Shown: positions 60,390 to 64,000 of the stretch, piece after piece
Layout: the number at the start of each line of letters is the position of its first letter
How positions within the stretch are numbered: the stretch's first letter is position 1
Sequence record: NC_054908.1
Source: Escherichia phage vB_EcoM_DalCa
Direction: 5' to 3' (one strand)
Length of the DNA stretch: 64,000 bases
Translations under genes and position numbers: made by a program
Notes under the pieces: generated by a model
Told to the model about the DNA's origin: nothing
The model's database searches: none
What the model saw: only the letters and a program-made list of their open reading frames with translations

Positions 60390-61046
60390 ATGGCAGCACC
60401 TAGAATATCATTTTCGCCCTCTGATATTCTGTTTGGTGTTCTAGATCGCTTGTTCAAAGATAACGCTACCGGGAAGGTTCTTGCTTCCCGAGTAGCTGTC
60501 GTAATTCTTTTATTTATGATGGCGATTGTTTGGTATAGGGGAGATAGTTTCTTTGAGTACTATAAGCAATCAAAGTATGAAACATACAGTGAAATTATTG
60601 AAAAGGAAAGAAATGCACGCTTTGAATCTGTCGCCCTGGAACAACTCCAGATAGTTCATATATCATCTGAGGCAGACTTTAGTGCGGTGTATTCTTTCCG
60701 CCCTAAAAACTTAAACTATTTTGTTGATATTATAGCATATGAAGGAAAATTACCTTCAACAATAAGTGAAAAATCACTTGGAGGATATCCTGTTGATAAA
60801 ACTATGGATGAATATACAGTTCATTTAAATGGACGTCATTATTATTCCGACTCAAAATTTGCTTTTTTACCAACTAAAAAGCCTACTCCCGAAATAAACT
60901 ACATGTACAGTTGTCCATATTTTAATTTGGATAATATCTATGCTGGAACAATAACCATGTACTGGTATAGAAATGATCATATAAGTAATGACCGCCTTGA
61001 ATCAATATGTGCTCAGGCGGCCAGAATATTAGGAAGGGCTAAATAA
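60390..61046 (+). CDS. t: Holin T
   Basis: 218 aa; single N-terminal TM segment and large periplasmic domain; position after 38. Confidence 0.9.
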   Translation: MAAPRISFSPSDILFGVLDRLFKDNATGKVLASRVAVVILLFMMAIVWYRGDSFFEYYKQSKYETYSEIIEKERNARFESVALEQLQIVHISSEADFSAVYSFRPKNLNYFVDIIAYEGKLPSTISEKSLGGYPVDKTMDEYTVHLNGRHYYSDSKFAFLPTKKPTPEINYMYSCPYFNLDNIYAGTITMYWYRNDHISNDRLESICAQAARILGRAK

Positions 61047-61319
61047 TTATTTGTTCGTATACATCTCTAGATATCGATATACACCCTCAAAACCCTCGTT
61101 GAATTCGTCGATGAGGGTTTTCTTATCTTCTTGAGTTAATTCAGAAACAATTTTACGGAATGAATTCTGATTTAACTTTCTACCTTCATGCGTTACTCCA
61201 ATCTCATTCAGAAATGCAATAAAATTAGCACGATTCTCAACAATATCTTCTCTGGAAAATTTAATCAAAATAGACGCAACAGTAATAATTTCACGAACTG
61301 TATCAATGTTTTTATTCAT
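61047..61319 (-). CDS. asiA: Anti-sigma-70 factor AsiA
   Basis: 90 aa; TTTACA-17-TATTAT promoter upstream. Confidence 0.9.
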   Translation of the reverse strand: MNKNIDTVREIITVASILIKFSREDIVENRANFIAFLNEIGVTHEGRKLNQNSFRKIVSELTQEDKKTLIDEFNEGFEGVYRYLEMYTNK

Positions 61320-61331
61320 TAACTATACCAC

Positions 61332-61484
61332 TCAATTAGTTGACTTTGTTATAATATCATCAGACACTTGATTTGTAAACTGGTCTGTGTTATTTTCTTC
61401 AAAAATTTTTTCTACGAATTCCTTGAACGACTCGCGTTCCTGAGCTACATTATGCTCGATTACCATTTCAAGATTATGACTCAT
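61332..61484 (-). CDS. Candidate 50 aa ORF (MSHNLEMVIEHNVAQERESF...) not in ORF track
   Basis: Its ATG overlaps the arn stop codon (ATGA coupling); contains the asiA promoter in its 3' part. Confidence 0.4.
   Translation of the reverse strand: MSHNLEMVIEHNVAQERESFKEFVEKIFEENNTDQFTNQVSDDIITKSTN
61351..61379 (-). promoter_or_regulatory. Early sigma-70 promoter for asiA (TTTACA-17-TATTAT)
   Basis: Good -35/-10 with 17 bp spacer about 30 bp upstream of the asiA ATG. Confidence 0.5.
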
Positions 61485-61759
61485 TCGAAATAATCTTCAA
61501 TTTCGTAATCATGGACATAAATCATTATAGTTTTTAATACATCATCAATACTTTTTCCTGGAGCTGGAATTACGTAAAAATATCCTGCTTTTGAGAGGTC
61601 TTTATAAGTTCCAATCAAGAAATCATTATTCTCAAGATGTAACTCTTCAACTAATTCATTGACAATTGAATGGTATAGGTTTGGTAGAAACTTATATAGC
61701 TTTTCTAGAATATCAATTTTGATTGTGTATTGAACCACGGACTGAGAATCAATAATCAT
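61481..61759 (-). CDS. arn: Arn-like anti-restriction protein
   Basis: 92 aa acidic protein; position between asiA and motA. Confidence 0.75.
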   Translation of the reverse strand: MIIDSQSVVQYTIKIDILEKLYKFLPNLYHSIVNELVEELHLENNDFLIGTYKDLSKAGYFYVIPAPGKSIDDVLKTIMIYVHDYEIEDYFE

Positions 61760-61842
61760 AGACCTTCCCCTTATGTTTCTGTTTGCGATTAGATTCTTTA
61801 AACGCTTTCTTCTTATCCTTATGAACAGAAGCTTTATTAAAA

Positions 61843-62061
61843 TTATGCTTTGCGACTAAATTGTTCATAGTGCTGAATTACCTCTCTTAAACATTTGCAT
61901 GTGAATGAAAACTTTTTAGCTACACCACATTCAAATATATGTTCTCTTAAATCACGTGTATCAGTATATCCCATCTCAACAATAAAATGCCTTATTAGAT
62001 TTTTATCTTTATCATTGAGAGAATTAAAATAATCAGATTTTGAATTAATTTCCCTGGCCAA
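61843..62061 (-). CDS. Hypothetical small protein (arn.x block)
   Basis: 72 aa ORF. Confidence 0.5.
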   Translation of the reverse strand: MAREINSKSDYFNSLNDKDKNLIRHFIVEMGYTDTRDLREHIFECGVAKKFSFTCKCLREVIQHYEQFSRKA

Positions 62062-62341
62062 ATTGAATCACCTTCAGTTGACGTTTTAGCTCTTTTATCA
62101 TCTCTTCGTTCATCGCAATATAAAGATCGCGTAAAGCAGGTTTTATCATTCCATTTATTGGGGAACTAAATGGGCATACATAATCTTTTCCTACGAGCTT
62201 TTTAGTGAATTCCATATCACAAAACTGAAATGCAGGTTCATTAGCATAAATTCCCCAATTGGTTGACATCATTTTATTGGCATATTCCAATGCTTGGATT
62301 TGATTAGTAATTCCATCAATTTGAAACTTTTTAATATTCAT
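62045..62341 (-). CDS. Hypothetical protein (arn.x block)
   Basis: 98 aa ORF. Confidence 0.55.
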   Translation of the reverse strand: MNIKKFQIDGITNQIQALEYANKMMSTNWGIYANEPAFQFCDMEFTKKLVGKDYVCPFSSPINGMIKPALRDLYIAMNEEMIKELKRQLKVIQFGQGN

Positions 62342-62808
62342 TAGTAAAGGTCCTCGGAGTAAAGTTCTTTTTCACTACCACCACGTTCAATACGCACTTG
62401 TCCAGCGTAAGTTGCAATAATCATTGCTTCTTCACGTGTCCAGTAATTGCTATACTGGTCAATAAATCCTTGGTCTTCACCACAAACATGGTCTGATACA
62501 AGTTTATCACTTACCTGGTCAAGAACTTCAGCCATATCTTTAGAATAATGACGAGCACCAGGAATAACCAGAGTCCCACCATCTTTTAACTTAAAGCGGT
62601 TGGCTGCACACACAATTCGACGTTGATATTTTTCATTATTGTTCCAATGAGCTACTTGCCAACAGATTTCAGGAACCTCTTCTAAAACATCCTCTTCCGT
62701 ATATTCGGTGTAGTCGCCATAGGCCTGTAATTTAGCTGCTAGACTTTCTGGAGTTTCACGTAATAAAGCCAGGTCTAATAATTCAAGACGCTCTTTGAAG
62801 GTTTTCAT
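62341..62808 (-). CDS. Hypothetical protein (arn.x block)
   Basis: 155 aa ORF; ATGA overlap with the downstream ORF. Confidence 0.6.
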
Positions 62809-62960
62809 TTGGTTTCCTCAACACTTTTAATTTTTATAGCTTGTTTAGAACTTTCAAAGCATTGACAATATACTCTTACCGCATCAAACTGGTTGGCCGC
62901 TTTAAGATGGACTACACCTTCGTCGTTATAAAATTCTACGACAATTTTAAATGTTTTCAT
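62805..62960 (-). CDS. Candidate 51 aa ORF ([20 protein letters not shown]...) not in ORF track
   Basis: ATGA overlap with the upstream 109 aa ORF stop and with the downstream 155 aa ORF start. Confidence 0.5.
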
Positions 62961-63286
62961 TTAAACCATCCTTTAATACGTTGCCATAAAGTTTTCTGTT
63001 GAGCTTTGTTAACACCAATTGAACGAATAACTGGTTGAGATTCCTGAAATTCTTTATAATCAGCAAGGTAAATTTCGTAAGCTGCATCCGTAAATGAACT
63101 TATCGCTGCCATAAAATTATTGCGAATACCTACTGGAGCATCTTTACTTTCACGAATAATCATGTATTTACCAGTCTTAATCTTTACGATAGTTCCAAGA
63201 TAAGCTCCATGGTACCAGATGTCCCAACCCTCTTGAGTAGGTTCTACACAACGACGAAGTTCATTGACAATTTCTAACTTGTTCAT
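62957..63286 (-). CDS. Hypothetical protein downstream of motA
   Basis: 109 aa ORF. Confidence 0.55.
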   Translation of the reverse strand: MNKLEIVNELRRCVEPTQEGWDIWYHGAYLGTIVKIKTGKYMIIRESKDAPVGIRNNFMAAISSFTDAAYEIYLADYKEFQESQPVIRSIGVNKAQQKTLWQRIKGWFK

Positions 63287-63296
63287 TATTTATTCC

Positions 63297-63932
63297 TCAC
63301 AGTTCAGATGCTACAGTGATTACAGCTTCAATGTTTTCTGCCGAGCGTTTAATGTCAAGATACACATTACCGTTTTTAGCGATTTTACATGACATTCCGA
63401 TATCAGTAAATTTCTGAATATGATGTTCCATCATTTTGTATCCAAAAATTCGCATATTTCCATTATTGTTAATTTCAAAATTACGAATTCCGTGAGTGCG
63501 TTTTTCTAAAATGGCAAGATAATTACTACGATAAGTTTCAACCTTTTTAAGAACAAATCCATTTTCATCTAAAAGTTTTAACATGAGGTCTTTATCTTCT
63601 TCCATATCAGAAGTAATCTCACGAGCTTTACGAGTTGCTCGTTTTTTCAGTAGTTCAGGAGCATTTTCCTGTGCATATAAAGTTGCCGCATTTGAAATAA
63701 TATCCTGAGCTTCACCAGTAATGATTAATCCATCACCAGATTTCTCCACCAGGCCTTTTTTAATCAATACCCCAATATTACTATTAACTACTGCGTTACC
63801 TAAATCTGGATGCACCTCACGAACTTCTGCGGCTGTAATGAAATCTTTCTTAGCAATGGTAATTAAAATCGCAGCAGTTTTTTCATTCAGAACATCGTTA
63901 GAAGCTTTGATGATGTAAGTTACTTTAGACAT
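63297..63932 (-). CDS. motA: MotA middle-promoter transcription activator
   Basis: 211 aa, same length as T4 MotA; position. Confidence 0.9.
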   Translation of the reverse strand: MSKVTYIIKASNDVLNEKTAAILITIAKKDFITAAEVREVHPDLGNAVVNSNIGVLIKKGLVEKSGDGLIITGEAQDIISNAATLYAQENAPELLKKRATRKAREITSDMEEDKDLMLKLLDENGFVLKKVETYRSNYLAILEKRTHGIRNFEINNNGNMRIFGYKMMEHHIQKFTDIGMSCKIAKNGNVYLDIKRSAENIEAVITVASEL

Positions 63933-64000
63933 TTTAATCTCCGTTTCAGTTCATTTATTTGATAGGTCTATAGTATCATGTTTAAAGCAGAAGTAAACAC

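Follow-up and report, generated by a model that had tools for sequence, protein, structure and literature searches.

An accessory 51-codon gene, probably coupled by translation to arn.4 and arn.3, in T4-like phages

Introduction

The arn operon and the PeSL cassettes of T4-type phages are among the described systems closest to the locus reported here. In phage T2, which seems to lack the small gene discussed below, arn.4-arn.3-arn.2-arn.1-arn has been reported as one abundant transcript (bioRxiv 10.64898/2026.06.19.733364). The only characterised product of this operon is Arn, an inhibitor of McrBC with a function in counter-defence (bioRxiv 10.64898/2026.06.19.733364). PeSL cassettes of T4-type phages depend for their movement on promoter and stem-loop motifs between genes (Arbiol et al. 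2010, PMC2839356; PMC4122927).

The stretch of DNA analysed here, called the window throughout, comprises 64,000 nucleotides of Escherichia phage vB_EcoM_DalCa (NC_054908.1). Its first-pass annotation had drawn attention to a 51 aa ORF on the minus strand that was missing from the ORF track, and had taken the coupling of this ORF to both neighbours as a strong argument for a real gene. We describe the junctions of the ORF, its family and predicted protein, the selection that acts on it and the way in which it varies among related phages.

Results

Junctions and coupling of the ORF

The ORF is located exactly where it was first placed, and its translation matches the one given then. The elements of the locus are:

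62805..62960, minus strand: CDS of 51 aa with ATG start, stop codon counted (RB32ORF252c / OE5505 gp160 / phrog_15636), annotated in relatives
62957..63286, minus strand: arn.4, 109 aa, upstream of the 51 aa ORF (RB14 annotation; phrog_1594 match)
62341..62808, minus strand: arn.3, 155 aa, downstream of the 51 aa ORF, the ORF-linked allele (RB14 annotation; phrog_839 match)
62957..62960, minus strand: ATGA overlap of arn.4 stop and 51 aa ORF start, read directly from the sequence
62805..62808, minus strand: ATGA overlap of 51 aa ORF stop and arn.3 start, read directly from the sequence
62969..62973, minus strand: Shine-Dalgarno-like AAGGA in the 3'-terminal part of arn.4, with an 8-nt spacer to the ATG of the 51 aa ORF
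62815..62819, minus strand: Shine-Dalgarno-like GAGGA for arn.3, within ORF codons V47-E48-E49, 6 nt upstream of the arn.3 ATG

At the upstream junction, the ATG of the ORF (62960-62958) overlaps the TGA of arn.4 (62959-62957), and at the downstream junction the ATG of arn.3 (62808-62806) overlaps the TGA of the ORF (62807-62805). Both couplings claimed initially, with the 109 aa and the 155 aa ORF, are therefore present, and the gap between the flanking genes indeed measures 148 nt. Stop/start overlaps at both ends and Shine-Dalgarno (SD) motifs at distances of 8 nt and 6 nt are the features of a gene in a coupled operon. Because these ATGA overlaps and SD motifs are present, translational coupling would be the most likely route to expression of the ORF. 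If ORFs with an ATG start and 40 aa or more are considered, the minus strand of the 64 kb window has 15 ATGA junctions. Double coupling is therefore the local norm and no curiosity.

The 4-nt overlap with the downstream gene is kept in every context examined. The upstream overlap is also found in Dhakavirus QL01 and in the metagenomic contigs L009 and L010; the Klebsiella copies have motA upstream, and a 7-nt gap replaces the overlap. In phages without the ORF, the AAGGA motif precedes arn.3 instead. The omission of the ORF from the first ORF track had been ascribed to its length. A cut-off is probably the explanation, as the default minimum of the ORF tool used here is 60 aa and the earlier track is presumed to have had a similar one.

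Annotation and family

The description of the ORF as unlisted applies to the ORF track and fails for public annotation, where it is a CDS in OE5505, RB14 and RB32. A comparison of 1,051 bases gave 100% identity of the region with vB_EcoM_OE5505, GADU22 and KK4 (Tequatrovirus), and OE5505 annotates the ORF as CDS KMC18_gp160 / YP_010072548.1. It is labelled RB32ORF252c in RB14 and annotated as hypothetical protein in RB32, and the protein is 98% identical to both copies (1 substitution in 51 residues). An annotated orthologue lies between arn.4 and arn.3 in OE5505, RB14, RB32 and QL01. Many other records carry the ORF as hypothetical protein, and a few leave it unannotated, for example the RefSeq entry of PP01. 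The phrog_15636 HMM matches residues 1-51 to profile positions 1-51 of 51 (E 4.2e-40, 136 bits). The RB32ORF252c / phrog_15636 family of Tequatrovirus, Dhakavirus and Marfavirus, of which YP_002854591.1 is a further example, is the same gene without any difference, and it is a family without assigned function. The ORF is thus already known and annotated and is not new. A literature search found no publication on RB32ORF252c and no T4-type Ribo-seq that covers the locus. The first-pass annotation had pointed to the small arn.x and motA.x genes of T-even phages; a homologous reading frame is found in relatives, but since T4 lacks the ORF, it does not belong to the arn.x or motA.x genes of T4 itself.

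The family is very narrow. A word-indexed search for distant homologues returned 6 close matches only, and an exhaustive HMMER search over 1.84 billion representatives gave nothing beyond the protein's own cluster. The search seeded with the Klebsiella copy yielded 1 match and none outside the known lineages, and the IMG/VR scan yielded 3 loci, all from the same lineages. No paralogue occurs elsewhere in the 64 kb window. In Klebsiella phage AmPh_EK29, a 59 aa ORF (L003, 3153-3332) is coupled downstream of the homologue and shows a similar predicted pattern. Its A-K-N-E-FDA-C-VR motif recalls the KA-N-FDAVR of the family at a non-significant E of 1.2. Paralogy of the two was rejected, with this hmmsearch E value and nothing found by BLASTP.

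Predicted protein

The protein has a mass of 5.9 kDa, a pI of 7.8 (8 K+R, 7 D+E) and no hydrophobic segment. The AF2 model seeded with the window sequence (pLDDT 80.5, pTM 0.60) contains three strands and no DSSP helix, and the model seeded with the Klebsiella homologue (pLDDT 92.7, pTM 0.74) contains a hairpin (2-10, 13-21), helices at 24-34 and 36-40 and a strand at 43-50. The protein is predicted to be soluble and to adopt a beta-beta-alpha-beta fold. Invariant residues are concentrated where strand 2 ends and along the helices (K20-A-x-N-x-x-D-A-V-R-x-Y-x-Q-x-F-E-S37). A CxC metal site (C32, C34) was considered and rejected, the Klebsiella branch having M and Y at these positions.

Among sequence families and structures with a known function, none matched the protein significantly, and PADLOC and NCBIfam gave no match. 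The sole Pfam match, DUF1847 (E 0.033, 14 bits against a cut-off of 25), and RidA-like PDB chains (E > 1) were rejected as candidates. An inhibitor of host RNA polymerase similar to T7 Gp2 would fit the position near motA and asiA, but hhalign assigns a probability of 0.1% (E 0.59) and the pI of 7.8 stands against 4.6 for Gp2. With neither hhalign nor charge in support of this lead, we consider a Gp2-like inhibitor very improbable.

Evidence for selection on the protein

Seven nucleotide copies were compared, namely those of the window, RB14, Dhakavirus QL01, the metagenomic contigs L009 and L010 and two Klebsiella Marfavirus phages. Variable sites in the E. coli-phage group distribute over the codon positions as 8:4:17, and pairwise dN/dS is 0.07-0.23. 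The Klebsiella copies have diverged to 51-53% protein identity with saturated synonymous sites, yet they are exactly 51 codons long, still begin with MKTFKI and end with SVEE, and overlap the following gene by 4 nt. Between branches with 51% identity, 24 residues are invariant, most of them far from the SD. This pattern clearly points to a genuine, conserved protein-coding gene under purifying selection. The claim of a real gene, made initially from double coupling, is thus supported by a frame and a 51-codon length kept down to 51-53% amino acid identity, by dN/dS and by the annotated CDS. Loss of the frame in relatives had been named as evidence that would speak against it; relatives conserve the reading frame, and the gene therefore stands.

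A frame open by chance, or a non-coding spacer kept only for the coupling of arn.4 to arn.3, would encode no functional protein. Such a segment would agree with the abundance of ATGA junctions on this strand (15 in the window) and with T4 and most relatives managing without it. It would also agree with the overlap of the conserved C-terminal SVEE with the SD of the next gene; because all homologues have GAGGAA at a distance of 5-6 nt from the following ATG, the invariant SVEE may partly reflect a constraint at the nucleotide level. Against this stand the low dN/dS and a variation that is richest at third codon positions, the invariant residues at a distance from the SD, and the retention of length and frame despite saturated synonymous sites. 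When the 50 internal codons are shuffled, the frame remains open in only about 1% of cases (0.9% mononucleotide, 1.2% dinucleotide). In phages that lack the segment, arn.4 is coupled directly to arn.3, and no spacer is therefore needed. We give a chance frame or spacer hardly any weight.

A functional RNA element or an antisense ORF of 53 aa on the plus strand (62841..63002) has a negligible probability, since the antisense frame, free of stops within the 156-nt segment in all E. coli-phage copies, is interrupted by a stop in each of the two Klebsiella copies, the codon-position pattern agrees with the frame on the minus strand, and the RNA element was rejected for want of a relevant Rfam match and for a predicted fold that is slightly more stable than shuffles but not significantly so (z -1.66; 12/200 shuffles fold at least as well).

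Operon context

A minus-strand protein-coding gene remains the preferred reading, and it is surrounded by small genes of the same orientation. Apart from arn.4 and arn.3, the gene order comprises:

minus strand: motA, 211 aa, first in the minus-strand gene order
minus strand: arn.2, 98 aa, 297 nt, after arn.3
61843-62061, minus strand: arn.1-like ORF, 72 aa, TTG start, from the ORF list; annotation varies between records
61749-61868, minus strand: RB32ORF249c, 39 aa, Pfam DUF7230, without annotation in the T4 record
minus strand: arn, 92 aa, after RB32ORF249c
61332-61484, minus strand: asiA.1, 50 aa, after arn
minus strand: asiA, 90 aa, after asiA.1
plus strand: holin gene t, opposite the cluster

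The start of arn.1 is annotated inconsistently. RB14 and T4 have a 43 aa frame that starts with ATG about 70 nt after arn.2, and OE5505 has a 74 aa CDS that overlaps arn.2 and is labelled 'anti-restriction nuclease'.

A sigma-70 scan of the arn cluster found 8 promoter-like sites against 12.3 expected from shuffles, and none for the 51 aa ORF. There is no minus-strand terminator in 61000-64000 and no MotA box in the arn cluster. In the whole window, the MotA-box-like WWTGCTTYA has 22 matches where 12.4 are expected, a count attained in none of the shuffles. Just upstream of motA (63960-64000, minus strand), we note GTTTAC-17 nt-TACTAT, which the simple sigma-70 scan did not flag and which we take to resemble a T4 early promoter.

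In T2 arn.2, a 2026 preprint (bioRxiv 10.64898/2026.06.19.733364) locates a site at which the host sRNA ArcZ binds. At the positions given for this site in T2, arn.2 of the window (+285..+294; 62048-62057, minus strand) reads CCAGGGAAAT.

A variable slot between arn.4 and arn.3

By tblastn, the 51 aa ORF is present in 84 phage records, about 76 from Tequatrovirus or Dhakavirus and 8 from Klebsiella Marfavirus. The flanking DNA is present in 651-756 records, as against the approximately 76 carriers of the E. coli type. We regard the ORF as an accessory gene in an evidently variable slot, for which the following states were found:

empty, with arn.3 ATGA-coupled to arn.4 without interruption: T4 (examined) and T2 (inferred)
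empty, arn.3 beginning with MKTFKE...: CHD2BS1 type, about 136 records
51 aa ORF: lineage of the window, about 76 records
unrelated 112 aa ORF: 49 records, with Dhakavirus among those listed
both, the 112 aa ORF and then the 51 aa ORF: metagenomic contig L009

The 112 aa ORF (L008 1326-1664; L009 29-367) overlaps both of its neighbours by 4 nt, and in L009 the 51 aa ORF comes immediately after it. In Marfavirus, the homologue follows motA after 7 nt and is itself followed by the 59 aa ORF and then by an arn.4-like gene. Two further variants were seen. In vB_EcoM_G2540-3 (L005, about 1320-1335), an A-run carries two extra A's (GCTATAAAAAAATT versus GCTATAAAAATT) and the frame is shifted, which results in a 59 aa product with altered C-terminus and a 26-nt overlap with arn.3. 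The extra A's reflect either natural variation or an error in sequencing the homopolymer. In L010 (462-635), the 51 aa ORF precedes a truncated arn.3, of which the C-terminal 57 aa are left behind a new MKPQL start that is still ATGA-coupled.

Linkage to arn.3

Identity in successive 100-nt blocks, together with identities per gene, defines a mosaic patch around the ORF:

62333..63032, minus strand: mosaic patch of about 700 bp (3' end of arn.4, 51 aa ORF and arn.3), 85-97% identical to Dhakavirus QL01 in a background of 61-78%
nucleotide identity of QL01 to the window: motA 67%, arn.4 81% (95% over 63032-62933), 51 aa ORF 92%, arn.3 92%, arn.2 66%
nucleotide identity of T4 to the window: motA 98%, arn.4 97%, 51 aa ORF absent, arn.3 81%, arn.2 94%

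Compared with Dhakavirus E33, QL01 is 94-96% identical in motA, arn.4 and arn.2, and only 85% in arn.3. From the identity profile of QL01 against the window and E33, about 700 bp were therefore exchanged between the genera, the ORF and arn.3 together. The window-type allele of arn.3 (at least 95% identity) is found in 72 records, compared to about 76 E. coli-phage records with the ORF, and identity then drops to 94% or less. The ORF evidently co-occurs with one arn.3 allele and moved with that allele in one Dhakavirus, QL01. Outside of QL01, the linkage could be clonal co-inheritance.

By its sequence divergence, arn.3 is an allelic hot spot, because it is 81% identical to T4 while motA, arn.4 and arn.2 are 94-98% identical. 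Some arn.3 alleles of Dhakavirus are nearer to the window (92-94%) than arn.3 of T4. Residues 1-33 of Arn.3 (62710-62808, minus strand) match profile positions 1-33 of 77 of the PADLOC model PD-T4-9_B (E 3.3e-6). PD-T4-9_B represents one of the components of a candidate anti-T4 defence system; the phage operon protein and this defence protein have the segment in common.

A direct repeat at the borders

A direct repeat of 17 nt marks both ends of a 152-bp unit:

62946..62962, minus strand: left copy of the 17-nt direct repeat, AAATGAAAACATTTAAA, one of 2 copies spaced by 152 nt
62794..62810, minus strand: right copy of the 17-nt direct repeat, AAATGAAAACCTTCAAA, matching the left copy at 15/17 positions

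The repeat pattern occurs twice in the 64 kb window, against 0.01 occurrences expected, and both occurrences flank the unit. The repeat consists of the ATGA junction and the first five codons, and both the 51 aa ORF and arn.3 begin with MKTFK. One copy, AAATGAAAACTTTTAAA, is found at the empty site of CHD2BS1. The start of arn.3 is different in QL01 and L010, and of the repeat only about AAATGAA is left there. The 17-nt repeat is the signature of gain or loss of the ORF via short-homology recombination.

A moron in the sense of Hendrix et al. is said to have its own promoter and terminator and often the opposite orientation. The 51 aa ORF shares the orientation of the adjacent genes and lacks both a promoter and a terminator of its own.

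Discussion

Taken together, we consider it very probable that the 51 aa ORF is a genuine, translationally coupled accessory gene of the arn operon in T4-like phages, which was gained or lost at the 17-nt repeat and is linked to one arn.3 allele. [quoted passage not shown] Ribosomes that end translation of arn.4 would re-initiate at the overlapping ATGA, aided by AAGGA, and the 3' end of the ORF, with GAGGA and the second ATGA, would pass ribosomes on to arn.3. The ORF supplies an SD and an ATGA for arn.3, and insertion would therefore leave operon coupling intact. Gain or loss of the 152-bp unit would take place at the 17-nt joint by short-homology recombination. The locus provides a clean example of a small accessory gene slotted into a tightly coupled phage operon that is left undisturbed.

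From its context, the protein may be a small early or middle binder of a host or defence protein, acting in host takeover or counter-defence and possibly together with Arn.3. We put this forward tentatively, its chances being somewhat below even. The gene accompanies a variable arn.3 allele, and Arn, the one characterised product of the operon, serves counter-defence; the pair is therefore a reasonable candidate for an anti-defence screen.

The gene call by itself adds nothing new, as the CDS is already in GenBank, RefSeq and PHROGs. The main value of the locus therefore is that of a calibration point, showing that an ORF cut-off of 60 aa hides real genes of T4-like phages. The same cut-off would also hide the 39 aa RB32ORF249c and the 50 aa asiA.1 in this cluster.

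Compared with known systems, T7 Gp2 is a small soluble early phage protein with the beta-beta-alpha-beta order predicted here, but there is no detectable sequence relation to the 51 aa protein, the charge differs and the structural scores are below threshold. The genes arn.1-arn.4 and arn of T4 and T2 are alike in strand, operon and tight coupling to small genes; unlike them, the 51 aa ORF is absent from T4 and, we infer, from T2, and its sequence is not similar to those of the arn.x proteins. With the PeSL and ORFan cassettes (PMC2839356; PMC4122927) it shares the character of a small ORFan with patchy occurrence among close relatives in a hyperplastic region, bounded by short repeats that could mediate insertion or excision. 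PeSL cassettes have intergenic early-promoter and stem-loop borders, whereas the 51 aa locus has no intergenic DNA, no flanking promoter or stem-loop motifs and no terminator, and the repeat coincides here with the ATGA junction and the first five codons.

A further-reaching proposal, which we regard as rather unlikely in its full extent, is that the ORF makes up, with the arn.3 allele beside it, a co-transferred counter-defence or host-takeover module of two genes inside the arn operon, which spreads between Tequatrovirus and Dhakavirus. The ORF would then represent a 'coupling-preserving' class of cassettes without promoter or terminator, which insert at ATGA junctions by recombination at the junction and the first codons, each bring along an SD and an ATGA, and can be stacked, as with the 112 aa and 51 aa ORFs in L009. 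If this were true, coupling-preserving cassettes would constitute a mechanism distinct from PeSL-mediated shuffling.
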